From: Candidatus Saccharimonadota bacterium
GTDB lineage: Archaea > Micrarchaeota > Micrarchaeia > Micrarchaeales > Micrarchaeaceae
Assembly (NCBI RefSeq): GCF_002214165.1
Contig: NZ_CP019964.1
Location: 630,001 to 662,000, forward strand
Direction: 5' to 3'
DNA length: 32,000 nt
Shown here: positions 1,973-32,000 of the stretch, one piece after another
How the letters are laid out: each line of letters begins with the position of its first letter
How positions within the stretch are numbered: position 1 is the stretch's first letter
Notes under the pieces: model-generated
Databases searched by the model: none
What the model was told of the DNA's origin: nothing
What the model saw: only the letters and a program-made list of their open reading frames with translations
Program-made: the position numbers and the translations under genes

Positions 1973-2728
1973 TCACGACAATCCTTGACTTTCTGGGGTG
2001 AGTATGTTTATTCCTGAACTGGTTATGCTGTAAGGGGCAAGGAACCAGCTGTGGTCGCTACCTCTCATCTTCACCACTTCAAGGGTAAGCTGCCTTTTAT
2101 CCTGCTCCCCTAACTCGTACATCATGATTATTCCGTCAAATGTGAAAAATTCGGGCTCAAACAGTATGCCTTTCCTTTCGCTTGATGAGACTTCAACAGT
2201 AAATATCGATGTTACTCCTAGAGACCTGAGCTTTGATATAAGGGATAGCAATGCTATCCTGTAGTTCGTGTTGTCCGGTATCATTAGATGCAGCAGGGAT
2301 ATTGAGTCAATAACAACAAACTTTGATTCATTTGCAATTATCATATCATCTATATCTGATACTATTGAGCTGAATGAGTAGCTCGATGAATCGGTCTTCT
2401 CAGTTATTTTCATTGCCACGGAGCTGCCTCCTATCTGGAGCATATGCTGTTCTTGAAGCTTTTCTATATCATCGAATTCTGTGAATACCTCCTTTGCATT
2501 CCTTATTATACTTTCAGGGGGTTCTTCAAAAGAGATAAAAGTTGAAGGGATTCCGGACTGGGCCATCTTATAAGCTACTTCAAAGCTCATCAGTGTTTTT
2601 CCTGCTCCTGGAACTCCTCCTATCATAATCTGGTTCTTAGACGGGATTCCTCCGTAAAGCATATAGTCCAACCCTTTTATCCCAGTCTTAAGTTTTATAA
2701 TTTTGTCTTTCATTTCACTCATCGCCAA
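1973..2728 (-). CDS. KaiC/RadA-like RecA-superfamily ATPase (single domain)
   Basis: 251-aa ORF. TGIKGLDYMLYGGIP, Walker A GGVPGAGKT and Walker B-like FVVIDSIS, typical of archaeal KaiC-like proteins. Confidence 0.8.
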   Translation of the reverse strand: MAMSEMKDKIIKLKTGIKGLDYMLYGGIPSKNQIMIGGVPGAGKTLMSFEVAYKMAQSGIPSTFISFEEPPESIIRNAKEVFTEFDDIEKLQEQHMLQIGGSSVAMKITEKTDSSSYSFSSIVSDIDDMIIANESKFVVIDSISLLHLMIPDNTNYRIALLSLISKLRSLGVTSIFTVEVSSSERKGILFEPEFFTFDGIIMMYELGEQDKRQLTLEVVKMRGSDHSWFLAPYSITSSGINILTPESQGLS

Positions 2729-3784: not shown

Positions 3785-4477
3785 ATGAATAGCTTGGAAG
3801 AGAAGATTGCCGGAGAAATAACCCTTTCGGACAGCCCCGGAAGCGTGATGAAGAAGTGGAGGGAGCTTTTCGGGATAACTCAGGTTGAGCTTTCAAAAGC
3901 CCTTAAGATCTCGACATCCACGATAAGCGATTATGAAAGCAATAGGAGGCTCAGCCCAGGGGTTGGCGTTATAAGGAGGTTTGTCGAGATGCTCCTTTAC
4001 ATAGACGAGAATAAAGGAGGTGAAGTCAGGAAAAGCCTTAATATGCTTAACAATGAGGGCGGCGAGAGCAATCTACCCTACTTGATACACGACTTTATCG
4101 CACCCGTGAACGGCATTGACTTTAACCGTATAATAGACGGCAAGATAGTGGCCAGCCAAAACTACCTTGACAATTTGAGGCTTTTTGGTTATACAAAGCT
4201 TGACAGCTTAAGGGTCATACTTGAGATGTCTCCATCAGACTACCCGAAGCTGTTCGGATCCACCAATGAGCGCATCTTCATATTCGAGAATGTTTCTACC
4301 GGAAGGTCTCCTATGGTAGTGATAAGGATAGCACCTATAAAGCCAAGGATAGTGCTTATACCCAGCCTGCAGAATGTGGACAAGCTTGCCATAAGGATAG
4401 CGCAGATAGAGAAGATACCTCTTATAACTACAAGATTGAGCATAAGCGAGATAGAGGAGAGGCTTAACAAACTATAG
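3785..4477 (+). CDS. XRE-family HTH transcriptional regulator with C-terminal domain (archaeal COG1395-like)
   Basis: 230-aa ORF. HTH segment WRELFGITQVELSKALKISTSTISDYESNRR. Confidence 0.7.
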   Translation: MNSLEEKIAGEITLSDSPGSVMKKWRELFGITQVELSKALKISTSTISDYESNRRLSPGVGVIRRFVEMLLYIDENKGGEVRKSLNMLNNEGGESNLPYLIHDFIAPVNGIDFNRIIDGKIVASQNYLDNLRLFGYTKLDSLRVILEMSPSDYPKLFGSTNERIFIFENVSTGRSPMVVIRIAPIKPRIVLIPSLQNVDKLAIRIAQIEKIPLITTRLSISEIEERLNKL

Positions 4478-5525: not shown

Positions 5526-6866
5526 TCATACCAATGTAAGCATATACGGGTTTTCCAGCAGCCTCTTAAGCTCGTTCCCGAAATCCGCTGCTGCGGCTCC
5601 ATCGACAACCCTGTGGTCAAATGTCAATGTGAACTCCATCACCTTGCCTGGCACTACCGCACCGTTCTTCACAACTGGCGTGTCCTTTATTATACCGAAT
5701 GATAGTATGGCCACATCCGGTGGGTTTATTATGGGCATTCCCATGTATCCCCCGCCCAAGCTGCCTATGTTGGTTATCGTGAATGATGTGCCTTTCATAT
5801 CATTAAGCTGGATCGTTTTGCTGTAAAGCTTTTCCCTTAGGTCCGTAAGGTCCTTTGCTATCTGCAATATGCTTTTCTTGTCAGCATCCTTTATCACTAT
5901 TATCTTCAGTCCCTCATCGGTCTTTGCTCCCAGGCCTATATTGTAGTACTGCTTCAGCGTTACCTCTTTATTCTCCGGATCGTAGCTTGCATTGAAATAT
6001 GGATTGTCCTTAAGCGCCACTGTTGCTGCCTTTATCATGAATGGCAGGTATGTGAGCTTTATGCCGAAATCCTTCGTAAATCCCTCCTTGGTCCTTTCTA
6101 CTATATCCACCAGGTTTCCTGAATCTATAAGATCCATGTGTGATGCTACAGGTATTGAGCTTGATGCCTCCATATTCTTCGCTATAACTTTCCTCAAAAA
6201 TGAGAGAGGGACCTTTTTGGTCGGGCCATAGTTGTCCGCAGATTCGGCGTGCTGAATTTGGTTCGCCTGCGCTTGCTGGGCATTTCCAACTGCATTGCTC
6301 TCCTGCTTTGGCGCAGCGCTTTTACTCCCTGAAGCATAAGCCTTTACATCGGCTTCCAGGATCTTGCCATTAGGCCCTGTTCCCTTGACCTTGTAAATAT
6401 CGACATTCATATCTAGCGCGAGCCTTTTGACGGCAGGTGTTGCCATTATGCTCTTTTTCTGGTCATCTGTGTTTTGGGGAGTTGATGGAGAAGCTGCTGT
6501 GGCAGTGTTAGGTGCTGCGGGCATTTGGCTGGCAGGTGTTGCACTTGGCTTGTTCTTGCTTTCCGCATCGGCACGCGGACCTTCATTTTGTACGGATGCA
6601 CCGAACTTGTATGAAGAAACCTCATCCTTTGCGCCAACTACCGCCAATGCATCTCCGGGCTTTACCTGTGCGCCATTTGCAACTGCATATTTTATCATGC
6701 CTTCCAATGGGGTTGGTATGTTCACTACGGCCTTGTCCGTCTCTATCTCCATTATCGTTTCGTCCTCCTTTACATTATCCCCATCTGCATGGTTCAGCTT
6801 GACAACATTGCCTTCGGTTATGCCTTCTCCTATATCGACAAATTTTATAATTTCCATATCAAACAC
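5526..6866 (-). CDS. 2-oxoacid dehydrogenase complex E2, dihydrolipoamide acyltransferase
   Basis: 446-aa ORF. Lipoyl domain (IMEIETDKA), Ala/Pro/Gln-rich linkers, E3-binding-like domain (ATPAVKRLALDMNVDIYKVKGTGPNGKILEADV), catalytic DHRVVDGA. Confidence 0.9.
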   Translation of the reverse strand: MFDMEIIKFVDIGEGITEGNVVKLNHADGDNVKEDETIMEIETDKAVVNIPTPLEGMIKYAVANGAQVKPGDALAVVGAKDEVSSYKFGASVQNEGPRADAESKNKPSATPASQMPAAPNTATAASPSTPQNTDDQKKSIMATPAVKRLALDMNVDIYKVKGTGPNGKILEADVKAYASGSKSAAPKQESNAVGNAQQAQANQIQHAESADNYGPTKKVPLSFLRKVIAKNMEASSSIPVASHMDLIDSGNLVDIVERTKEGFTKDFGIKLTYLPFMIKAATVALKDNPYFNASYDPENKEVTLKQYYNIGLGAKTDEGLKIIVIKDADKKSILQIAKDLTDLREKLYSKTIQLNDMKGTSFTITNIGSLGGGYMGMPIINPPDVAILSFGIIKDTPVVKNGAVVPGKVMEFTLTFDHRVVDGAAAADFGNELKRLLENPYMLTLV

Positions 6867-6877
6867 ACTTTATTGTT

Positions 6878-7843
6878 TCAAGAATTCATCAGCTTCTTTA
6901 TGCTGTACAATATCCTATTCTTGTTAGGCACCCAATAATCCTCGTCCCCGGAGAAAGGATAAGGGAAGCTGAAACCTCCAAGCCTCATGACAGGCGATTT
7001 CAGATCATATAGGGATTTCTCGCCTATCCTTGCGGCGATTTCCGCACCCGCACCAAATGAAAGAGGGGCTTCGTGTAGAACAAGAGCCCTCCCTGTCTTC
7101 TTTACACTTGAGAGGATTGCTGATTCGTCCAATGGGTTTATTGTCCTGAGATCCAATATGTCAGCTGATATATTGTTTTCCTTCACTACCTCCTGTGCCG
7201 GCCTTACCATTGTTCCGTAGGTTATTATTGTAAGGTCATCCCCCTCATTAACCAGATTTGCCTTCCCTGCTGGCACTTCATACATCCCCTCAGGGACTTC
7301 CTGCTTGAAAAGCCTGTATAATTTTGTAGGCTCTAGGAATATCACAGGGTCGTCCATGTGTGAGGCCTTTATCAGCATACCTTTTGCATCATATGGATTC
7401 GATGGCTCCATCACAACCAAACCTCCTATGTGGGAGAACAATGCTTCAGGGCTCTCGGAATGATGCTCCAATGTCTTGACTCCTCCGCTGACGGGCATCC
7501 TTAATACCATAGGTATTTTTATGTTCCCTCTCGTCCTGCTTCTATATCTAGCCGCATGTGAGGCCAGCTGGTTGAATGCAAGATATGAGAATCCCGCAAA
7601 CTGTATCTCGGGGAATGGATGCATCCCCGATATGGCCATTCCTATGGAGGCCCCGACTATTGATGACTCTGCAAGCGGTGTGTCTATGACCCTGCCTGGG
7701 CCGTACTTTGCAAAAAGGCCATCAGTCACCCTGAATACCCCTCCATCCTTTCCTACATCCTCCCCCAATATTATTGCTTTTGAATTTTCCTCCAAACATA
7801 AATCTAGTGCATTATTAAGTGCAGTAACCATATTAGACATCAT
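6878..7843 (-). CDS. 2-oxoacid dehydrogenase E1 component, beta subunit
   Basis: 321-aa ORF with transketolase-like pyrimidine-binding and C-terminal domains (ILGEDVGKDGGVFRVT, DTPLAESSIVG). Starts 9 nt downstream of E1alpha. Confidence 0.9.
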   Translation of the reverse strand: MMSNMVTALNNALDLCLEENSKAIILGEDVGKDGGVFRVTDGLFAKYGPGRVIDTPLAESSIVGASIGMAISGMHPFPEIQFAGFSYLAFNQLASHAARYRSRTRGNIKIPMVLRMPVSGGVKTLEHHSESPEALFSHIGGLVVMEPSNPYDAKGMLIKASHMDDPVIFLEPTKLYRLFKQEVPEGMYEVPAGKANLVNEGDDLTIITYGTMVRPAQEVVKENNISADILDLRTINPLDESAILSSVKKTGRALVLHEAPLSFGAGAEIAARIGEKSLYDLKSPVMRLGGFSFPYPFSGDEDYWVPNKNRILYSIKKLMNS

Positions 7844-7852
7844 ATAACCACC

Positions 7853-8941
7853 TCACTGCCAAAAATTATTCTTCAACGCTTCATCCTCCTCCTCTTTTAG
7901 TGTTTCGGGCATGAAACTGTATACATTATCAAACATCGCCTTTGGATTCGCCTTTGCTTCGTTGACTTTCGCAGTCGCGTCATCTATAAGCGACTTGTTC
8001 TGGTTCTGCATATCCTCATCCATAGAATCATTCCAAAGTCTATTTGATACAAGATACTTCCTCAAGCGCAATATTGGATCCTTGGGCTTCCATCCATCGA
8101 CTTCGGATTCAGGCCTGTATTTGGTCGGGTCATCAGAAGTGGTGTGCATTCCCATCCTATATGTCAATGCTTCTATTACCATAGGCTTTCCGCCTTTTTT
8201 TACCGAATCCAAAGCATCCTTTGTGGCCTTGTATACTGCAATCACATCGTTTCCGTCAACCTGTATTGCATCGACTCCTGCTGCAACCGCCTTCTGCGCC
8301 AATGTCTTTGAAGCTGTCTGGCTTGACCGGGGGACTGAGATTGCCCACTCGTTGTTCTCTATTACAAACACGATTGGGAGGTTGAAGACGCCTGCGAAGT
8401 TCAAAGCTTCGTAGAAGTCGCCTTCAGATGTTGAGCCATCACCTCCGTATACTATTACGGCATTCTTGTACTTCTGGTACTTCATGCTGAACGCTATGCC
8501 AGCCGCTTGGGTATACTGGCTGCCTACAGCGATTGCCTCCGGAGTGAGCCGTTTCTGTAGGATAGAGGAATATGCTTCTTCGTAGCCCTTCACTGCAATG
8601 AAAAGGTTCTCCAAAGGCACACCTCTCATTATGAATGGAAGGTGGTTCCTGAATGTGGGGACTATAAAATCTGATGCGTCCGCGGCATATGCGCTGCCTG
8701 CCTGGACTGCTTCTTCGCCATTTAAGGGGGCAAATGTCGCTACCTTTCCAAGCCTCTGAAGGGTTAACAGCTTATTGCTTACAGCCCTTCCAAGACTCAT
8801 GAATTTATACAATTCTATTATCTTTTTTGGTTCTAGATCTTTTGGGAACAGGCTGTTGTCTATGTTGCCGTCTTCGTCCATGATCTGCATGTTTTTTATA
8901 TTTCCATTGAACACTTCCTTTATCATTAGTACCACACTCAC
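7853..8941 (-). CDS. 2-oxoacid dehydrogenase E1 component, alpha subunit (ThDP-dependent)
   Basis: 362-aa ORF. ThDP-binding motif YGGDGSTSEGDFYEALNFAGVFNLPIVFVIENNEWAIS. Confidence 0.9.
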   Translation of the reverse strand: MSVVLMIKEVFNGNIKNMQIMDEDGNIDNSLFPKDLEPKKIIELYKFMSLGRAVSNKLLTLQRLGKVATFAPLNGEEAVQAGSAYAADASDFIVPTFRNHLPFIMRGVPLENLFIAVKGYEEAYSSILQKRLTPEAIAVGSQYTQAAGIAFSMKYQKYKNAVIVYGGDGSTSEGDFYEALNFAGVFNLPIVFVIENNEWAISVPRSSQTASKTLAQKAVAAGVDAIQVDGNDVIAVYKATKDALDSVKKGGKPMVIEALTYRMGMHTTSDDPTKYRPESEVDGWKPKDPILRLRKYLVSNRLWNDSMDEDMQNQNKSLIDDATAKVNEAKANPKAMFDNVYSFMPETLKEEEDEALKNNFWQ

Positions 8942-12619: not shown

Positions 12620-12857
12620 GTGTGGCAAGTGGGCAGCTTACCGAAAGGAGGAAGCTCTCCCCATGCTAAGATGATCAAAATAAGCTTAAGGCTTGATTCG
12701 GAACAGAAACGGCACCTTGAATCCTGAGAATGCGATGACACTACGAGCTTGGAGGAGGGGATGAAACGGCCGATGTGACCATCGATGTGCATGCAAGGTT
12801 TTAAACCGCTTAGTCGAATGCTGCCAAAAACAGAAGGGAGGCTACAACTTGCCACAC
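12620..12857 (+). ncRNA. rnpB: RNase P RNA (archaeal, compact)
   Basis: 11-bp terminal helix GUGUGGCAAGU / ACUUGCCACAC. CR-I-like GGAGGAAGCUCUCCCC; CR-V-like ACAGAAGGGAGGCUAC; the two can form P4 (AGC[U]CUCCC with GGGAGGCU, a bulged U as in the consensus). S-domain-like GGGGAUGAAACGGCC. Locally GC-richer than the flanks. Confidence 0.75.
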
Positions 12858-12870
12858 TCTAATACTATAT

Positions 12871-12989
12871 TGGCGAGGGCGGGATTTGGACCCACGACCT
12901 CTAGATTTCTCGTCATCGCTATAAAAGCTCATCACTCATAATGCTATGCATATGAGTCTAGCGCTCTAACCAGGCTGAGCTACCTCGCC
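12871..12989 (-). tRNA. tRNA with CAU anticodon (elongator Met or Ile2) with 44-nt intron at 37/38
   Basis: Hand-folded cloverleaf: acceptor GGCGAGG/CCUCGCC + A, D arm GCUC-AGCCUGGUUA-GAGC, anticodon stem CUAGA/UCUAG with loop CU-CAU-A, T arm GUGGG-UCCAAAU-CCCGC. Intron 12907-12950 contains UAUGAG complementary to the CUCAUA loop. G1-C72 argues against an initiator. Confidence 0.85.
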
Positions 12990-14645: not shown

Positions 14646-14663
14646 TATTAATTGGTTGATAAT

Positions 14664-16202
14664 ATGGGATCATTGATTATTGGAGCAGTAACGCTGATTA
14701 TACCTTTAGTGGCTTTGTTCATATCTTTCATGTTTGCAAAGCTTGATGCGTTGAAATCGGCATTTGTTGGATTTATAGTTGAACTTGCAATGGTAGTGCT
14801 TTTCTATCCATCTGCAAGGATTGTCGATGCATCAATATGGGGTACTTTTGAGACTTATTCCATATTCGGAGTTATATGGACAGGCATGATATTTGGTATC
14901 ATGTACCGTGAAACCGGCCTTTTAAGGAGACTTTTGGACGTATTGCACAGTGTTATACACAGCGGCTGGGGATTAGTTGCCGCTCTTGGGGGAGTAATAC
15001 AAGGTATATTAGGTGCATTCAACGGTTTTGCGGTGTACCCAATTGCAATACCTGGCATAAAGGAACTTGGATATGAACCATGGCGTTCCGCAACAGGTTA
15101 TCTTGTACTTGCATCATGGACAATACCATTGGTCAGCCTTTGGATAGCAGGTTCACTTGCAAGTGCCGCATCCCATATCCCTGTTCCAACAATGGCACCA
15201 TTTGTTGGAATGATAACAATACCGTTGATCTTCATCGCAGTGTTTGGAGGGATGAAGATACTTAATGAAAAATTCAATAAGGAAAACCTTACTATTGCAG
15301 CTTTGTACATTATAAGCGGCATTGTAAGCATTATAGTATTCGCGATACTTATACCAAGTGCATACTTGCTTACATTGATAGCTTCGGGATTTCTTACCTT
15401 GATACTATTCGTCCTGTATTCAAAGCATTTGAAGCAAGATTCAACAGATATACAGAAATTCAGCTTGTCTGGTATACTTAAACCATTCGGGCCGATAATA
15501 GTTGGGATAGTACTTATATTACTTTGGACATATCCACTTGCAGGTTTGGTTGCAAAGGCAAATTACGTGCTTAAACTATGGACTTATGCACCGGTTTCAA
15601 TTAACCTTCTTACGACACCTGCATTCTTCATATTCGTGGTTGCATTGAGCACTTATATGTTCAAGATAAAGCCTGATGAGAATAAGGGAAAGCAGAAGCC
15701 AGCAACTCCAGTAACAAAGCCACTTGGAGTCTGGAGTTCGTTGGTGAAGGGCAGCAGGATGTCAGGAAATTCGCTGCTTACGACATTTTTAGGTGCAACA
15801 TTTGCAGGTGTAGCAATAGCGAGTGGTCAAGTCGCTGCTATAACAAAACTTATGGCAGAAGCAGGAAGCTTGTTCTACCCTATAGTGCTTAATATTTTCT
15901 CTTGGGGAACTGGAATAGTGTTTGCAACAGGAACAGTTGCGGCATTCCTTATAAGTGCACCCCAGGTTGCGGTTGCTAGTGCACTTACATTGCCTGTAGG
16001 ATTATTGCTTGGAGTTGTGGTTATTATGACAATGGGTCCTGCAAATCCATTAAAACCTTCCTTGATAGCTTACACTGCAACATTGGCAGGGGCGCCTTCA
16101 AAGGACCAGTCGAAGATATTTAACAACGCATTGGTTTGGATGGCAATAGAGCTTGTGGTTGCACTTATCACAACATTTGTGATAACGTATTTGGTTATTT
16201 AA
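14664..16202 (+). CDS. LctP (L-lactate/glycolate permease) family transporter, copy 1
   Basis: ORF track 14652..16202 starts at TTG; ATG at 14664. Polytopic. Segments parallel E. coli LldP by eye ([31 protein letters not shown] vs [51 protein letters not shown] vs [20 protein letters not shown]). Confidence 0.75.
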   Translation: [512 protein letters not shown]

Positions 16203-16355: not shown

Positions 16356-17879
16356 TTGATTATTGGTGCGATAACCTTAATAGTTCCTTTATTGGCTTTG
16401 TTCATATCTTTCATGTTTGCAAAGCTTGATGGACTTAAATCGGCATTTGTTGGATTTATAGTTGAACTTGCAATGATTGTCTTGTTTTACCCATCTGCAA
16501 GGATTGTCGATGCATCAATATGGGGTACTTTTGAGACTTATTCCATATTCGGAGTTATATGGACAGGCATGATATTTGGTATCATGTACCGTGAAACCGG
16601 CCTTTTAAGGAGACTTTTGGACGTATTGCACAGTGTTATACACAGCGGCTGGGGTCTCGTAGCATCTCTCGTTGGCGTAATACAGGGCATACTTGGTGCA
16701 TTCAACGGTTTTGCAGTGTACCCAATTGCAATACCTGGCATAAAGGAACTTGGATATGAACCATGGCGTTCCGCAACAGGTTATCTTGTACTTGCATCAT
16801 GGACAATACCATTGGTCAGCCTTTGGATAGCAGGTTCACTTGCAAGTGCCGCATCCCATATCCCTGTTCCAACAATGGCACCATTTGTTGGAATGATAAC
16901 AATACCGTTGATCTTCATCGCAGTGTTTGGAGGGATGAAGATACTTAATATAAAATTTAATAGAGAAAATCTGACCGTTTCCGCCCTATATATTATAAGT
17001 GGCATAATAGGCATTGTAATATTTTCGATATTAATTCCAAGTGCATACTTGCTTACATTGATAGCTTCGGGATTTCTTACTCTGATACTATTCGTCCTGT
17101 ATTCAAAGCATTTGAAGCAAGATTCGACAGGATTGCCCAAGATTAATCTTTCAGGCACACTTAAACCATTCGGGCCGATAATAGTTGGGATAGTACTTAT
17201 ATTGCTTTGGACATATCCACTTGCAGGTTTGGTTGCAAAGGCAAATTACGTGCTCAAACTATGGACTTATGCACCGGTTTCAATTAACCTTCTTACGACA
17301 CCTGCATTCTTCATATTCGTGGTTGCATTGAGCACTTATATGTTCAAGATAAAGCCTGATGAGAATATAGATAGCAATAAGCCAGTAACAAAGCCACTTG
17401 GAGTCTGGAGTTCGTTGGTGAAGGGCAGCAGGATGTCAGGAACCGCCTTACTAACAACGCTTTTAGGCGCGTCATTTGCAGGTATGGCTATTATAAGCGG
17501 GCAGATTACTACAATAACTACATTAATGGTAAAGGCAGGAAGCTTGTTTTATCCTTTGTTGCTTAACGTTTTCGCATGGGGGACAGGGGTTGTGTTTGCA
17601 ACAGGGACGATTGCAGCATTCCTTATAAGTGCACCTCAGGTTGCGGTTGCTACTGCACTTACATTGCCTGTAGGATTATTGCTTGGGATTGTGGTAGTCA
17701 TGACTATGGGCCCAGCAGATCCTTTAAAGCCATCAGAGATAGTTTATGCGGCAACATTGGCAGGGGCGCCTTCAAAGGACCAGTCAAAGATATTCAATAC
17801 CGCTTTAGGCTGGATGGCAATAGAACTTGTAGTTACACTCATAGTAACCCTAGCTTTGGCTGTTTTAGTTATTAAGTAG
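16356..17879 (+). CDS. LctP family transporter, copy 2 (tandem paralog)
   Basis: 507-aa ORF starting at TTG, roughly 85-90% aa identity to copy 1 by eye. The codon homologous to the copy-1 ATG is ATA here. Confidence 0.75.
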   Translation: MIIGAITLIVPLLALFISFMFAKLDGLKSAFVGFIVELAMIVLFYPSARIVDASIWGTFETYSIFGVIWTGMIFGIMYRETGLLRRLLDVLHSVIHSGWGLVASLVGVIQGILGAFNGFAVYPIAIPGIKELGYEPWRSATGYLVLASWTIPLVSLWIAGSLASAASHIPVPTMAPFVGMITIPLIFIAVFGGMKILNIKFNRENLTVSALYIISGIIGIVIFSILIPSAYLLTLIASGFLTLILFVLYSKHLKQDSTGLPKINLSGTLKPFGPIIVGIVLILLWTYPLAGLVAKANYVLKLWTYAPVSINLLTTPAFFIFVVALSTYMFKIKPDENIDSNKPVTKPLGVWSSLVKGSRMSGTALLTTLLGASFAGMAIISGQITTITTLMVKAGSLFYPLLLNVFAWGTGVVFATGTIAAFLISAPQVAVATALTLPVGLLLGIVVVMTMGPADPLKPSEIVYAATLAGAPSKDQSKIFNTALGWMAIELVVTLIVTLALAVLVIK

Positions 17880-18895: not shown

Positions 18896-18992
18896 TGCGA
18901 CCGTCGGGATTTGAACCCGAGTTTTTGGCTGTCTTTTGAACCTTCCTTTTTCAATGGAAGGCCAAAGTCCTACCAGGCTAGACTACGATCGC
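18896..18992 (-). tRNA. tRNA-Gly(UCC) with 24-nt intron at 37/38
   Basis: Hand-folded: acceptor GCGAUCG/CGGUCGC + A, D arm GUCU-AGCCUGGUA-GGAC, anticodon stem UUGGC/GCCAA with loop CU-UCC-A, T arm UCGGG-UUCAAAU-CCCGA. Intron 18931-18954 contains GGAAGG complementary to CCUUCC. Confidence 0.85.
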
Positions 18993-27449: not shown

Positions 27450-27466
27450 TTAATATAGATGGCAGG

Positions 27467-27481
27467 TAAAAATATAAAAAT
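27467..27481 (-). promoter_or_regulatory. TATA-box-like element for the minus-strand MFS gene
   Basis: The minus strand reads atttttatattttta, centred about 25 nt upstream of ATG (27449). Suggests a leaderless transcript. Confidence 0.3.
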
Positions 27482-27557
27482 GGTGCAATTGGTGAAGCGA
27501 TTAAACTGTTTCCTCTAAGGGGACTAAAACATATAATTGTAGATAAGTATTTATTAT

Positions 27558-27591
27558 TATACTAAAGTAAACTATTGTAAACTTTAGTATA
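27558..27591. promoter_or_regulatory. 11-bp perfect inverted repeat with embedded 7-bp direct repeats, candidate operator of the downstream cluster
   Basis: tatactaaagt N12 actttagtata. Inside it, gtaaact occurs twice at 10-bp spacing (27567-27573, 27577-27583). It follows ttattattat (27551-27560) and ends 10 nt before the first ORF. Confidence 0.4.
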
Positions 27592-27600
27592 GGGATTATC

Positions 27601-27990
27601 TTGGGTTCGATTCATAATATTGGTATTATAAAAAGGGTTATAGGTTTGCTTAAAGTGTTAACGATTCCGTTCATCCTGCTTACTGTTCTTATTTCCACTT
27701 ATTCGAGTGCTTCTACCCTAAATAGCAGTACAATAGGGATTGTGTCCCAGTTAGGATACGTAAGGGGTTTGCTCTCCCAAATAGGCCCTCTATTGAGTGC
27801 AGTACTGTTTATATTGGCAGGTATATTCTATGCAGTGGGCCAGTTGATGACACCTGAGAAAAAAGCTTCATTCCATACCACTGCAATAAACCTAATAATA
27901 GGTGCAATAATTGTTGCAGTTTTAAGTTTTACCTCTACAACTTTGGCTACTGCCTCAACGCACTTCCTATCCAACTCTACATTAAAGTGA
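27601..27990 (+). CDS. small secreted two-helix membrane protein; VirB2/TrbC/CedA1-like pilin candidate
   Basis: 129-aa ORF (TTG start, uncertain). Signal-like VLTIPFILLTVLISTYSSAS, then two hydrophobic helices (LLSAVLFILAGIFYAVGQL; AINLIIGAIIVAVLSF) joined by the basic loop TPEKKASFH. Confidence 0.45.
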   Translation: MGSIHNIGIIKRVIGLLKVLTIPFILLTVLISTYSSASTLNSSTIGIVSQLGYVRGLLSQIGPLLSAVLFILAGIFYAVGQLMTPEKKASFHTTAINLIIGAIIVAVLSFTSTTLATASTHFLSNSTLK

Positions 27991-27996
27991 CTATTC

Positions 27997-29016
27997 ATGC
28001 TTGGGTATACTATAGACATTTATGCGTTAAGCATAATGATAGCGATAGGAGGGATATTGCTGGGCTTGGGCTATGCATTCAATGATCTTAACCTAAAGAG
28101 GTATGGGAAGAAGGAGCTGCTTGAATCTTTGGTAAACGGCATAATGATAGGGGCTCTTATATTGGCTTTTGGTCAAGGCGGTGTAATATACAATGCTATG
28201 GAATCAACAGTAACTTCGGTTTCGCCAGCTATTGGCTGTGGATCGATGTCCAATAACTATGCTATATGTTTTGCATATAACTTTCTTATAAATCCTGCTT
28301 ACATATCAATAGATGGAAGGTCCTATCCATCCCTTATAGATGATTCGCTTGGCCTTCTTGTGCCTCTATCAACAATTTATACAATATTAGGCATAATAGG
28401 TTCAATGAGCTTCAGCTTGGGTGTTGTATCTATAACACTTCATTCGGTTATGGCGCCTCTTTTGAGTGTAGGCAGGGACATTATAGAGATACTGACCTTT
28501 GCAAATATCTCAATATACATGCAAGCAGCATTACTGAAAGTAATAGGTTTGATATCCCTTTCTTTATTAATGCCTATTGGGATAGTTTTACGAAGCTTTT
28601 ATTTTACAAGGCGGTTAGGAGGATCAATAATAGCGCTTACCATAGGGTTGTTTGCGGTCCTGCCTATGATGTACCTATTAAATGCAGTGATAATATCAAA
28701 TTACTCAACTGCATCTGCAGGTAGCATGGCAACACAATCGTTGGCTACAGCAACGGCTTTTGAGGGATCTATATTCTCTGATATAATTGGGAATTCGGCG
28801 GCAGGTATTGGAATCGCGTCATTTTATAGTTCACTTTCAGGCTTTGCCAAAGAGATGAACCAGTTTTTTGAATCCATAGTTGATGCCTTGGCCATTTTGA
28901 TTATAGAAGTTGTCTTTCTTCCAGTACTGAGCATTATAATGACAATTATATCGACCAGGGAGCTTGCACGGATACTTGGCACTGAAATTTCATTTGGCAG
29001 ATTTGATGTATTTTAG
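27997..29016 (+). CDS. polytopic membrane protein; VirB6/CedA-like candidate
   Basis: 339-aa ORF, 6 nt after the previous gene, with at least 6 hydrophobic segments. No motif recognised; the call rests on topology and context only. Confidence 0.35.
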   Translation: MLGYTIDIYALSIMIAIGGILLGLGYAFNDLNLKRYGKKELLESLVNGIMIGALILAFGQGGVIYNAMESTVTSVSPAIGCGSMSNNYAICFAYNFLINPAYISIDGRSYPSLIDDSLGLLVPLSTIYTILGIIGSMSFSLGVVSITLHSVMAPLLSVGRDIIEILTFANISIYMQAALLKVIGLISLSLLMPIGIVLRSFYFTRRLGGSIIALTIGLFAVLPMMYLLNAVIISNYSTASAGSMATQSLATATAFEGSIFSDIIGNSAAGIGIASFYSSLSGFAKEMNQFFESIVDALAILIIEVVFLPVLSIIMTIISTRELARILGTEISFGRFDVF

Positions 29017-29770
29017 TGGTTTTATGAATTACGGCAGTTTAAATGAAAGCTTAATATATATTGTCCTGTTAGTCTTGAACTTCATATTGGTTTTGATTGC
29101 TGCTTTGGCCTTCAATCCAACACTTATAGCTTTGGCTCTAATCTTCCTTTTGCTTTCGTTTTTTATAATAAGGTTTTGGGACTATATAAATGCACTTATA
29201 ATAAACCATTCAAATTTCATAGAATTATTCGGTGGATATGAGCTGGATTTAGCCTCTTCAATAGCTGTTTCTTCATCCAATGGCATATATAATGCAGTTT
29301 CTTTAGGGTATTTCAAATTTGATGGAAGTGATGAATTTGACCAGGATAAGATAGAATCAATCATAAGATCAAATCCCGTCCCGTTTAGGTTTGTAATCAA
29401 TATTGAAAAAGTGAACCAAAAAAAGATCTTGGGCGACCTAAGAACAAAGAAGCACATCAAAGAGATAGAATTGGCCAACTTATCAAGGGAAAAGGATTTT
29501 GCAAAATCCAGCATTATAAGGCGTAAGATAGATGTTATCTCACAGGACATTGCGGATATCTCTTCCGGAACCTCTTTCAAGCTTGTGTACTATCTGATTG
29601 CCTACGGCAGTTCGGAGAACAAGTTCAGGGCTGAGACTATGGCAAGGGAGAACTTGGAAAAGATCTCGGCTAGTTTCAGCTCCGCGTTTAAATGCACCAT
29701 GGAGAATTTGCATGGAAGCGATCTTGTCAGCTTCTTAAAGTTTGAATCGATGATATCCCATGATTTATGA
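29006..29770 (+). CDS. TM-hairpin protein with soluble domain; VirB3-like hairpin plus VirB4 N-terminal-domain-like candidate
   Basis: ORF track 28964..29770 (TTG); in-frame ATGs at 29006 and 29024. Two adjacent TMs (LIYIVLLVLNFILVLIAALAF; LIALALIFLLLSFFIIRFW) then ~170 soluble aa. Overlaps both neighbours by 11 nt. Confidence 0.4.
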   Translation: MYFSGFMNYGSLNESLIYIVLLVLNFILVLIAALAFNPTLIALALIFLLLSFFIIRFWDYINALIINHSNFIELFGGYELDLASSIAVSSSNGIYNAVSLGYFKFDGSDEFDQDKIESIIRSNPVPFRFVINIEKVNQKKILGDLRTKKHIKEIELANLSREKDFAKSSIIRRKIDVISQDIADISSGTSFKLVYYLIAYGSSENKFRAETMARENLEKISASFSSAFKCTMENLHGSDLVSFLKFESMISHDL

Positions 29771-31115
29771 TAAATTTTATAATATCTCCAATTCGGTTTT
29801 GCTTGCGAAGCAGATAAAGATATCTGCAATGTCAGAATCTAAATTGTGCGAATTGCCCGGCAGTGATGGATTTTACGTAGGCAAAAGCTCAATATATAAT
29901 TTGCCCTTTTTCATAAACTTTGACAAGCTTATGAACAAGCACATTATTTCACTTGGTATGACGGGCTCGGGAAAGACAAATCTGCTCAAGAACCTGATAC
30001 TTAAGATCTTTGTTTATGAAACAAGCCCATCAATAACTATATTTGACTGGTCCGGCGAATACTCAGATATAACAAATTATACTGTTGGAATAAGGCATGA
30101 TCTTAAAAGCCTTGGAATTAACCTTCTTGATCTTTATGGGACCGATCTATTCAAGCCCCTGGTCATTAATGCATTGGAGAACTTTTGCGGGCTTTCAAGC
30201 AATGACTGCAACGAGATTTATGATAAAATATCAAATGGATTGGGCAAAGGTAAACGGGATTTCAATGAAGGCATTTCAGGATTTTTTAGAAGAATCCGTA
30301 AACCAGGAGTTGGGAAGAAGGTTTTGGCCCTGGATCACTATAAACTATTTAACCAACACCCTGGCATTGACTTGAACGGTATTTTGGATAAATTCCTGTG
30401 CTTTGACTTATCGAGCTTGGATGAATTTGGGAAATCCAATTTTTCAAAGCTGCTTCTGCTCCTTTTAAAGCTTGAGATTTATAGGAAAGGGATAAGCACT
30501 GGAAAGACTAATTATTTGGTATTTGATGAAGCATGGAAGTATATTAAGGATGATTCAATATTGAATGGCCTTTTCAGGGAAGGGCGAAAGTATGGAGTAA
30601 GCCTGCTCATAGCTACCCAAATGGCTTCTGATGTATCGAATGAACTCCTATCAAATGCTGCTTCTGTCTTCATATTCAGGCTGCATAAGGAGGACTATAA
30701 AGTTCTGGGCAATTACGGAATTGATTCAAATAGGTTTAGCGGGATAACAGAGAATTTGGGAAGGGGGAGCTGCTTAGTCAGCCAGATATTGAAGGGAGGG
30801 ACTTTTTCACAGGCTGTTATAAGTGATGTGAAACATTTCAATCTTTCTGATTACTTGTTGGTTTCAGGTGATAATATGAATTATATATCCAGAATCAGAT
30901 TCAAAAATGCAGTCGAAAAGTACTGCACGAATTCAGGGAGCATCCTACGTTTTATGGAGGAGAATAGTAAATTGGATTTATCTAAATTAATAGAGAAGCT
31001 GATTTCTGATGGCAATGACCGGGTTGTGATTGTCACATTGCTGCGCTCTGTCGGTATTGACGATTTTGTTATAGCCTCGGGGTTCGACAATCTAAGATCC
31101 GTCTATTTTGAGTGA
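29760..31115 (+). CDS. VirB4/TrbE/CedB-type (HerA-FtsK superfamily) P-loop ATPase
   Basis: 451-aa ORF. Walker A LGMTGSGKTN, Walker B NYLVFDEAWKY, REGRKYGVSLLIATQ. The DEAW and RK-G...ATQ pattern is typical of VirB4/TraC-type ATPases. Alternative start ATG 29829. Confidence 0.75.
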   Translation: MIYDKFYNISNSVLLAKQIKISAMSESKLCELPGSDGFYVGKSSIYNLPFFINFDKLMNKHIISLGMTGSGKTNLLKNLILKIFVYETSPSITIFDWSGEYSDITNYTVGIRHDLKSLGINLLDLYGTDLFKPLVINALENFCGLSSNDCNEIYDKISNGLGKGKRDFNEGISGFFRRIRKPGVGKKVLALDHYKLFNQHPGIDLNGILDKFLCFDLSSLDEFGKSNFSKLLLLLLKLEIYRKGISTGKTNYLVFDEAWKYIKDDSILNGLFREGRKYGVSLLIATQMASDVSNELLSNAASVFIFRLHKEDYKVLGNYGIDSNRFSGITENLGRGSCLVSQILKGGTFSQAVISDVKHFNLSDYLLVSGDNMNYISRIRFKNAVEKYCTNSGSILRFMEENSKLDLSKLIEKLISDGNDRVVIVTLLRSVGIDDFVIASGFDNLRSVYFE

Positions 31116-31750
31116 TTTATATGCAATTTTCTTCATCGTTTATGGCAAAAGGTAAGCTGCTTACGGACTTTCATTCTTTATCCGAAGATATAAGCTACCT
31201 GCATCTATTCAAGATAAATAGTTATGGCACTTCACTTGACTATTCCATAGATATGAAAGGAGAGAAACTATCTCTTGTATTCTCTACGAACATGATATCG
31301 TATAGCTTTTATTACGACACTCTTTCAGATAACTATTACTTACTAAACTTTTCAAGGTTCATAAGGCTAATAAATTACTTGAAGAGGCATTACAGGATAG
31401 ACTTTGAATCTGTCTATCCATACCTCTCAAATTCTATTAGCATAAAGCTTGACGAGGCAAAATTGGGCTATTTCAAGAGCGAACAAAAGGTAAAAGGCAA
31501 CATTCTGGAATATTTGGATAACCTGTCTGAATCAAACTTTAACCTTAGCGAGAAATTGATACAAATCAACAGATACAATAAGGATATTTTAAGCGAGCTT
31601 TCGATTTATAAAAAATTTTCTCAAACTGTTGCCTCCAATCTCAGAAAGGCCAATTTTGAGAATGATAGCTTGGAGGAGGCGGCCAGCAGGTCATTTGGAA
31701 TTGATATTAAATTGGCCCATGCAGTATTGAAATCGCTTGGTTACCTGTGA
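31112..31750 (+). CDS. hypothetical soluble protein in the cluster
   Basis: 212-aa ORF overlapping the ATPase stop by 4 nt (GTGA); alternative ATG 31121. No recognisable motif. Confidence 0.5.
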   Translation: MIYMQFSSSFMAKGKLLTDFHSLSEDISYLHLFKINSYGTSLDYSIDMKGEKLSLVFSTNMISYSFYYDTLSDNYYLLNFSRFIRLINYLKRHYRIDFESVYPYLSNSISIKLDEAKLGYFKSEQKVKGNILEYLDNLSESNFNLSEKLIQINRYNKDILSELSIYKKFSQTVASNLRKANFENDSLEEAASRSFGIDIKLAHAVLKSLGYL

Positions 31751-31755
31751 TATAT

Positions 31756-32000
31756 ATGGACACCCGCCTGTTGCTTATAATATTTTTCTTGCTTCTTGCC
31801 ACCTTAGTGCTTACAATGCATTATCTGACATATCTTCATATAAGCTATCTTATAGCAGGGCTTTTGGTGCTTGTCGGATCAGTGATACTTTCCAACCTTG
31901 GGAATGATGTGAATAGCTACAAGTATGATATATTTTATAGGGATAAGAGGACATTTAGGTTAACGGATCAATTTTTGGAGCGTGTTGGCATTTATAGGGA
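31756..32000 (+). CDS. membrane protein, N-terminal fragment (continues past the right edge)
   Basis: Own translation from ATG 31756: MDTRLLLIIFFLLLATLVLTMHYLTYLHISYLIAGLLVLVGSVILSNLGNDVNSYKYDIFYRDKRTFRLTDQFLERVGIYR, open to the window end. Two TM helices then a soluble part. Confidence 0.45.
   Translation, partial: MDTRLLLIIFFLLLATLVLTMHYLTYLHISYLIAGLLVLVGSVILSNLGNDVNSYKYDIFYRDKRTFRLTDQFLERVGIYR

Follow-up and report, generated by a model that had tools for sequence, protein, structure and literature searches.

The window considered here, the whole 32,000-nucleotide (nt) stretch of contig NZ_CP019964.1 from position 630,001 to 662,000, ends inside an operon of nine genes (p1 to p9) that probably encodes a chromosomally fixed, relaxase-free apparatus derived from a type IV secretion/conjugation system (T4SS), of the same kind as the archaeal Ced and Ted systems and situated in Micrarchaeota. 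The first gene specifies a predicted VirB2/TrbC-type pilin precursor, the third and fourth genes together look like a VirB3-VirB4 protein whose N-terminal and C-terminal domains lie on separate genes, and the locus keeps its order and its chromosomal neighbours in divergent relatives. The carrier organism is Candidatus Mancarchaeum acidiphilum Mia14 (DPANN, Micrarchaeota) or a near-identical strain, p2 being 100% identical to a 'multipass membrane protein' of that organism. In culture, Mia14 lives as an episymbiont on Cuniculiplasma, an archaeon of the Thermoplasmatales (PMC5498576).

The operon consists of nine co-directional genes whose junctions are either overlaps or, between non-overlapping neighbours, gaps of at most 6 nt. 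Genes p1 to p6 correspond to the six plus-strand open reading frames (ORFs) present in the ORF list of the window between 25 and 32 kb, and the tight packing reported in a preliminary description of this DNA is exact at every junction (a 6-nt gap, overlaps of 11, 11 and 4 nt, and a 5-nt gap). That description had regarded the six as one operon; the operon is indeed single, but it does not end at the window edge, since p7 to p9 continue beyond it. Coordinates past this point were taken from the parent contig (L001), a JGI metagenome contig of 116 kb that carries the exact p4 sequence, as does an NCBI contig of 130 kb (L002) from a metagenome-assembled genome (MAG). On L001 the operon extends about 3.7 kb past the window end, and the six window genes make up its first two thirds. 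The cluster had been said to start at 27558, where there is no start codon; past the stop at 27568-27570, the earliest in-frame initiation codon is the TTG at 27601. The leader upstream of p1 is a putative operon promoter, judged by its AT-rich composition and TATA-like run. A hydropathy scan agrees with the topologies proposed earlier for all six window proteins: p1 has an N-terminal hydrophobic leader and two hydrophobic helices, p2 about seven hydrophobic helices, p3 an N-terminal transmembrane (TM) hairpin and a soluble domain of about 190 amino acids (aa), and p6 two N-terminal TM helices and a soluble domain, while p4 and p5, like the distal p9, are soluble.

Table 1. Features of the operon. 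Positions refer to the window unless marked L001 (window position = L001 position + 19759).
Feature	Position	Strand	Description
TATA-like run tttattattata	~27550-27561	+	in AT-rich intergenic leader 27450..27600; sequence reading
p1	27601-27990	+	129 aa; TTG start
p2	27997-29016	+	339 aa
p3	29006-29770	+	254 aa; start is an internal ATG of ORF 28964-29770
p4	29760-31115	+	451 aa
p5	31112-31750	+	212 aa from GTG; gene callers place the start at ATG 31142 (202 aa)
p6 (5' part)	31756..32000	+	cut off at window end; full gene 224 aa on L001
p6	L001 11997-12671		224 aa
p7	L001 12668-12862		64 aa; 2 TM
p8	L001 12853-13146		97 aa; TM
p9	L001 13140-15440		766 aa; second P-loop ATPase, GLPGTGKT / LLVVEEAE

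The p1 protein is predicted to be the precursor of a VirB2/TrbC-type T4SS pilin. It carries a charged and hydrophobic leader up to about SSAS, followed by two hydrophobic helices linked by a basic loop (PEKKA). The family alignment consists of a charged/hydrophobic leader, an amphipathic helix closed by an invariant Pro, a hydrophobic helix with the consensus LFIxAGxxYAxGQ, a basic loop, and a second hydrophobic helix, a layout that, as read from the alignment, is that of VirB2/TrbC. Pfam T4SS_pilin (PF18895) is matched by 14 of 15 family members (best 4.4e-6) and Pfam TrbC/VirB2 (PF04956) by nine of them (best 1.7e-7). For pairwise profile comparisons, RefSeq records of R388 (TrwK, TrwL, TrwI, TrwB) and pCF10 (PrgH, PrgI, PrgJ, PcfC) served as reference proteins. 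The R388 pilin TrwL is the best PDB match of the p1 family profile (E 0.004), and a direct alignment by hhalign reaches 76% probability (E 2.2e-5, 34% identity over 50 columns). These results bear out the VirB2-like pilin proposed in the preliminary description. In two related loci, three tandem pilin genes are located upstream of p3-p4 (L015 6220-7512 and L034 224-1279).

For the p3 protein, an exhaustive search of 1.84 billion representative proteins recovered 106 clusters at 50% identity, whereas a word-indexed search gave two proteins. No sequence match to p3 was obtained in Pfam scans of 25 family members, in a profile search of PDB, or in hhalign comparisons with TrwK, PrgJ and PrgI, which returned coiled-coil noise or insignificant alignments only. 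An AlphaFold2 (AF2) model computed from 88 homologs (pLDDT 91, pTM 0.73) places an alpha/beta domain, interrupted by a coiled-coil insertion, behind a TM hairpin and contains no ATPase domain. When this model was compared with PDB by Foldseek, R388 TrwK/VirB4 occupied ranks 1-10 and 12-15, i.e., 14 of the top 15 matches, with E-values from 8.9e-4 to 9e-2, probabilities of 0.92-1.00 and 153-168 aligned columns. The modelled soluble domain thus appears to adopt the fold of the VirB4 N-terminal domain, placed behind a hairpin in the VirB3 position; the assignment to the N-terminal domain follows by deduction, because p3 has no nucleotide-binding domain. The hairpin may be called VirB3-like by its position.

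The p4 protein contains a Walker A motif at residues 66-73, a Walker B motif at residues 253-259, and an extra C-terminal domain of about 80 aa. All three motifs quoted in the preliminary description (GMTGSGKT, LVFDEAW and GRKYGVSLLIATQ) are found in it. Its Pfam matches are DUF87 (1.5e-12) and AAA_10 (4.8e-9), and its best NCBIfam families are CedD (1e-17, 64 bits, cut-off 600) and CedB (7e-17, 61 bits, cut-off 700), which agrees with the earlier suggestion of a Ced-like ATPase. The other NCBIfam matches include VirB4_CagE (37 bits, cut-off 643) and the CD1110 VirB4-like family (41 bits, cut-off 325). All 22 p4 family members match CedB (best 1e-32), CD1110 (best 4e-27) and CedD (best 2e-26), and these three families rank above HerA models. 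In hhalign comparisons the p4 profile aligns collinearly with PrgJ 431-745 (95% probability, E 2e-8, 281 columns) and with TrwK 412-721 (64% probability), both of which are the VirB4 C-terminal ATPase domains, beginning where the N-domain ends. By contrast, alignment with VirD4/TrwB is confined to the surroundings of Walker B. By its motifs and profile matches, p4 is a VirB4/CedB-like P-loop ATPase domain that is related to CedB and CedD and is not their ortholog. The segment encoding the C-terminal extra domain (window 30870-31115) occurs as a separate ORF of 102-108 aa after the ATPase gene in three other loci (L023 6967-7293, L024 10318-10626 and L030 11451-11759), and many p4 family members of about 370 aa do not contain it; this domain therefore seems to be a mobile accessory module.

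Taken together, p3 and p4 look like a split VirB3-VirB4, with the N-terminal and C-terminal domains on separate genes. The VirB3-B4-like pair of the preliminary description finds support in both halves, that is, in the fold of p3 and in the roughly 280 columns over which p4 aligns with the ATPase domains of PrgJ and TrwK. The two proteins probably form a complex, given the 11-nt overlap of their genes and their near-invariant adjacency. An archaeal precedent for a partitioned VirB4 exists, since, according to Wu et al. 2025 (PMC11868833), portions of the VirB4 N-domain are also matched by the N-domains of CedB and CedD.

Conservation of the locus was assessed in 56 collected loci by jackhmmer with each operon protein; 27 of these are distinct loci with an ATPase of the p4 family type. 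In 20 of the 21 loci that could be scored, p3 is the gene immediately upstream of the ATPase, and p5 directly follows p4 on its downstream side in all 24 testable loci; as an internal control, the partner genes were found next to none of 17 more distant ATPases. The p3-p4-p5 triad is the core of the cluster and recurs across Micrarchaeota. Two Micrarchaeota MAGs, with ATPases 76% and 42% identical to p4, carry all nine genes in synteny and with the same flanks (M1 peptidase and MFS transporter on one side, NreA, PepQ, Kae1 and Bud32 on the other). A more distant clade, with 31% ATPase identity, retains the order pilin, polytopic protein, p3, ATPase, p5, and, further on, a second ATPase, here between GatD/GatE and AhpC/RtcB. 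The check among relatives called for earlier therefore returned the same gene order at 31-42% ATPase identity, and for this reason the arrangement is not due to chance. In the p2, p3 and p4 families, every member with an archaeal source name is assigned to Micrarchaeota, Micrarchaeia, Micrarchaeales, Micrarchaeaceae, Anstonellaceae or 'Marsarchaeota'. One locus carrying the last label (L007), which looks wrong, has the same flanks as a Micrarchaeaceae locus (L006). Two bacterial labels in these families ('Acidoferrales' and 'Omnitrophica') look like mis-binning.

On the 5' side of the operon are genes for a sugar transporter, a GT2 glycosyltransferase, an MFS transporter and an M1 peptidase, and 3' of p9 a convergent NreA gene is followed by PepQ, Kae1 and Bud32; NreA adjoins the operon on the opposite strand in one clade only. 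The ordinary housekeeping flank noted upstream is thus matched by housekeeping genes downstream. No integrase, relaxase, VirD4-type coupling protein, replication gene, partition gene or flanking tRNA was detected within 10 kb on either side, and inspection downstream, which the preliminary description had proposed after seeing no relaxase or integrase, yielded p6 to p9, NreA and housekeeping genes. The GC content of the cluster (0.35-0.39) equals that of its neighbourhood. The cluster is chromosomal and vertically inherited, because its flanks are the same at 76% and 42% ATPase identity, integrase and relaxase are absent, and its GC content is like that of the neighbourhood; the earlier leaning towards a chromosomal machine over an integrated element is upheld. 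A type IV pilus or archaellum is rejected, as none of the nine proteins has a PilB/FlaI-, PilC/FlaJ- or prepilin-type Pfam match.

The polytopic protein p2 is a candidate channel subunit, in view of its VirB6/CedA/TedA position and its fitting size and topology. Its family comprises 98 clusters, every one of them unannotated or named 'multipass membrane protein'. The protein has about seven helices, with two invariant Cys residues in the first outside loop, and its AF2 model reaches a pLDDT of 78. The family shows a likeness to the pilins in the hairpin at its N-terminus (hhalign E 1.8e-4, 48% probability), and in a p2 paralog of L024 the jackhmmer pilin profile matches the same hairpin with an independent E-value of 1.5e-18, a figure inflated because the L024 sequence was absorbed into the profile during iteration. 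Such a pilin-like hairpin mirrors the relation of CedA to CedA1 and of VirB6 to VirB2 (Beltran et al. 2023, PMC9905601). Five or six tandem p2 paralogs, two tandem p3 paralogs and a single downstream ATPase occur in L024 (248-7082 and 7123-8806) and L030 (589-6758 and 6814-8495), and one of the tandem p2 paralogs bears a long Ser/Asn-rich N-terminal extension. These tandem paralogs recall the expansion of VirB6 paralogs in Rickettsiales.

The remaining products are less readily placed. The p5 protein is soluble and of coiled-coil type, and its C-terminal part is probably a winged-helix domain. Its family matches coiled-coil families in Pfam as well as winged-helix families (EAP30 in 7 of 21 members; TrmB, IclR and Rrf2 in 4 of 21 each), and the p5 of the window itself has no significant Pfam match. 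No Pfam or NCBIfam family is matched by p6, p7 or p8, and none of p2 and p5 to p8 has a T4SS match. In another Micrarchaeota clade the p6 slot is occupied by an unrelated protein of 271-275 aa (L006 10643-11470, L007 11759-12577) that, by eye, begins like a signal peptide, continues in a beta-rich stretch that is probably extracellular, and has a TM helix further on; since unrelated proteins take this position, the slot is variable and possibly surface-facing. The ATPase core of p9 aligns with that of p4 (hhalign, 96% probability), behind an N-terminal region of about 290 residues without a family match. CedD is the best NCBIfam family for five of six p9 orthologs, and the p9 of this operon scores 30 bits against it. 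No similarity to PcfC/VirD4, p3 or PrgJ was found beyond the Walker B region, and on these comparisons p9 was rejected both as a VirD4 and as the carrier of a VirB4 N-domain. The earlier statement that no VirD4-type gene is visible thus holds in that p9 is not detectably VirD4-like, although a second ATPase does lie just beyond the window.

The Ced system of Sulfolobales (CedA, CedA1, CedA2, CedB, CedD/CedE) is among the closest in general design. It shares with the Micrarchaeota operon a chromosomal, relaxase-free, T4SS-derived character, a VirB2-like pilin, a polytopic protein with a pilin-like N-terminus, small two-TM accessory proteins, two paralogous HerA/VirB4-like ATPases, and a VirB4 N-domain function spread over separate polypeptides; CedB and CedD are the top curated families for p4, as CedD is for p9. 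The p4 and p9 scores are, however, about one tenth of the equivalog cut-offs, so that the two are not orthologs of the Ced ATPases. Moreover, the VirB4-N-like domain is here on its own membrane-anchored protein, p3, and not on the ATPases, and the host lineage is DPANN, whereas Ced belongs to Thermoproteota. All genes are here in one operon, in contrast to Sulfolobus, where cedA and cedB are unlinked. The leader of p1 looks cleavable, while CedA1 is reported to be unprocessed (PMC9905601). Ted of Thermoproteales (TedA, TedB, TedC), compared by description, resembles the operon in its signal-sequence pilin, polytopic CedA-like protein and VirB4-like ATPase, clustered on the chromosome with extra ATPases alongside (PMC9905601). 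Unlike the Micrarchaeota locus, Ted loci have ParA/MinD, Rad50 and HerA neighbours, and neither the p3/p4 split nor a p5 partner has been described for them.

Conjugative T4SSs of the MPF_FATA type, exemplified by PrgH-PrgI-PrgJ of pCF10, share the order of a polytopic VirB6-like protein, a small VirB3-like hairpin and VirB4, in addition to the alignment of p4 with PrgJ. The T4SS of Patescibacteria is likewise chromosomal and relaxase-free, has VirB2-like pilins (tandem in some relatives of the present locus) and belongs to ultra-small obligate episymbionts (PMC12102498). Both differ from the operon in that VirD4, the VirB1 hydrolase, a VirB8-like protein and a relaxase were not detected here, in that VirB4 is divided between two genes, and in the archaeal envelope; in addition, p2 has no similarity to PrgH or TrwI. 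HerA-NurA and defence HerA systems have in common with p4 the RecA-type core of the FtsK-HerA superfamily, and HerA chains are its top PDB matches. The preliminary description had expected the ATPase to fall with VirB4 and not with HerA, and this expectation stood in part. In its favour, no NurA, Mre11 or Rad50 gene lies in the operon or its flanks, nor is there a Sir2 or DUF4297 partner. The DUF87 match of p4 begins at residue 40, and the roughly 35 residues before it are too few for a HerA-type N-domain ahead of Walker A. HerA models cover p4 in two short separate pieces, whereas CedB, VirB4_CagE and 4AG5 cover it in one collinear stretch, and p4 is embedded among membrane proteins and a pilin. 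The expectation did not hold for the profile core, which is at least as near to HerA as to bacterial VirB4.

Several observations weigh against descent from a T4SS or against parts of the assignment. In the PDB search with the p4 profile, HerA chains score 4.5e-23 to 2e-19 and the sole VirB4, 4AG5, 4e-12, although the CedB/CedD core is likewise reported to be close to HerA (PMC11868833). Every curated-family match of p4 is far under its cut-off, even the best. The match of p3 to VirB4 is structural only, with a best E of about 1e-3 and a TM-score of 0.35-0.39 on the full query, and the Foldseek output does not show which TrwK residues are aligned. Taken alone, the p1 of the window scores 21.9 bits for Pfam T4SS_pilin, under the gathering score of 26.6. 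Linkage of the outer genes holds in about half of the testable loci (p2 in 11 of 18, p1 in 10 of 18, p9 in 6 of 14). For p2, no VirB6/TrbL/CedA match emerged from the family profile against PDB sequences or from Pfam and NCBIfam scans of 50 family members, hhalign gave no similarity to TrwI or PrgH, and Foldseek with the AF2 model retrieved no VirB6-type protein from PDB, the best match being TTYH (E 0.17). The reading of p2 as VirB6/CedA-like is consequently unconfirmed, whereas three of the four earlier component assignments, proposed from topology alone, survive independent tests. Finally, cargo and direction are drawn from analogy alone.

For a T4SS-derived apparatus, the following mode of action can be proposed. 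The p1 precursor would be exported, relieved of its leader and polymerised into a VirB2-type pilus, while p2 and the small membrane proteins p6 to p8, judging from position and topology, may form a membrane channel or assembly platform. The hairpin of p3 would anchor the motor to the membrane, and its VirB4-N-like fold would dock p4. VirB4, CedB and HerA work as hexamers, and p4 would presumably act as one too. With p9 and p5, this motor could then drive a nucleic-acid substrate through the channel. By analogy with Ced and Ted, the most likely function would be the uptake of DNA or its exchange among cells, the host archaeon included; this is favoured since the closest relatives of known function are DNA importers and since two FtsK/HerA-type ATPases and a winged-helix protein are supplied by the operon. 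Such a function fits the biology of the organism, in that Mia14 is without most biosynthesis and gene exchange with its host has been shown (PMC5498576). Also in line with it, cryo-electron tomography (cryo-ET) of another Micrarchaeota co-culture revealed intercellular nanotubes and a 21-nm docking barrel in the symbiont envelope (PMC11329633).

A possible but less probable explanation is that the same T4SS-derived apparatus has another job, serving as a conduit for host proteins, nucleotides, RNA or metabolites or for effector delivery, as in the epibiotic growth of Patescibacteria. The conservation of the cluster across a phylum of genome-reduced obligate symbionts would suit such a role, and so would the example of Patescibacteria, whose T4SS is also relaxase-free and chromosomal with tandem VirB2-like pilins (PMC12102498, PMC12857230), to be compared with the three tandem pilins of L015 and L034 or the five to six tandem p2 paralogs of L024 and L030. 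Tubes between host and symbiont are visible by cryo-ET, but the same study assigns them to the host, not to the symbiont (PMC11329633). The operon shows no evident effector candidates, the curated families closest to its ATPases are those of DNA importers, and two ATPases of the FtsK/HerA superfamily together with the winged-helix-type domain of p5 suit a nucleic-acid substrate.

It is unlikely that the operon encodes a lineage-specific membrane complex of non-T4SS origin built around HerA-type ATPases, for instance for secretion, an adhesion filament or envelope biogenesis, with pilin and VirB4-N similarities that are convergent or too weak. This explanation draws on the HerA chains at the head of the PDB matches, on the sub-threshold level of all T4SS-type matches, on the five proteins without any such match (p2 and p5 to p8), and on the presence of the broad arCOG00280 ('HerA helicase'), to which p4 and p9 presumably map, in all 15 DPANN genomes of the Mia14 arCOG table. 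Against it, the profile match of p1 to pilins, the fold of p3 and the collinear alignment of p4 with the VirB4 C-domain are three independent lines that converge on T4SS parts in the canonical order pilin, polytopic protein, VirB3/4; that fold-search ranks 1-10 of p3 are all VirB4 chains is unlikely by chance; and both the HerA-type N-terminal domain and the NurA partner are absent.

An origin of the cluster as transfer module of an integrated conjugative element or a plasmid remnant is highly improbable and largely refuted: relaxases and pilins are likewise not recognisable in conjugative plasmids of archaea (PMC9905601, PMC12857230), conjugative elements in genomic islands are a speculation of the Mia14 paper (PMC5498576), and a high-GC, laterally acquired-looking operon lies 19 kb upstream, but the cluster is present across the phylum, its GC content is like that of surrounding genes, the insertion context is the same in genomes with orthologs only 42% identical, and the housekeeping flanks on both sides offer neither the relaxase, VirD4, integrase or replication genes nor the variable site of a self-transmissible element.

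Elsewhere in the window, the upstream operon just mentioned encodes a 2-oxoacid dehydrogenase on the minus strand (5526-8941), with E2 at 5526-6866, E1 beta at 6878-7843 and E1 alpha at 7853-8941. The GC content of this block is 0.43-0.47, compared with 0.33-0.39 elsewhere, and the Mia14 paper lists 2-oxoacid dehydrogenase genes among the genomic islands shared with Thermoplasmatales (PMC5498576); on these two grounds the operon looks like a laterally acquired island. The plus strand encodes a short archaeal RNase P RNA at 12621-12856; 14 nt further on, at 12871-12989, the other strand carries a tRNA of 119 nt, and a second tRNA of 97 nt is located at 18896-18992. Both tRNAs were found by Rfam and not by ARAGORN, and both exceed the standard size and are therefore presumably intron-bearing. 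These RNA genes are consistent with an archaeal source of the window. Two adjacent plus-strand ORFs of 516 and 507 aa (14652-16202 and 16356-17879), which match nothing in Pfam at E<=0.001, have a UbiD-family decarboxylase on one side and an ArsR-type regulator on the other. At the start of the window, a stand-alone KaiC-type ATPase (1973-2728, minus strand; Pfam KaiC 2e-47) is located beside ORFs that match no Pfam family, and a gene for an HTH_3 regulator (3785-4477) lies nearby.

No description of the Micrarchaeota cluster was found in the literature searched, which does not prove it unpublished. The Mia14 paper mentions type IV pili, Sec and Tat and speculates on 'membrane proteins' and DNA exchange without naming a machine (PMC5498576), and neither the Ced/Ted paper (PMC9905601) nor the 2025 T4SS nomenclature review mentions DPANN. 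Tubes and pili between symbiont and host have been seen by microscopy, without assigned genes (PMC5498576, PMC11329633).

The split VirB3/4 is a notable architectural difference from known systems and bears on the kinship of VirB4, CedB/CedD and HerA. DPANN archaea constitute a large, mostly uncultured radiation of ultra-small symbionts, and nine candidate genes with the ancestry of a DNA-transfer machine, found across the phylum and in an organism that is in culture, make symbiont-host exchange testable. More speculatively, the operon might be the machine with which Micrarchaeota, and perhaps other DPANN, exchange DNA or macromolecules with their hosts, an archaeal counterpart of the essential T4SS of Patescibacteria; it might also contribute the symbiont-side structure, a pilus or docking complex, in cryo-ET of the ARMAN/Thermoplasmatales and ARM-1/Metallosphaera pairs, and the split VirB4 might define a new T4SS class. 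If the T4SS-derived nature of the locus is true, domesticated T4SS-like systems extend from Thermoproteota (Ced/Ted) to DPANN, and the parallel with the T4SS needed for the epibiotic growth of Patescibacteria suggests that ultra-small symbionts of both prokaryotic domains have convergently turned to conjugation machinery.

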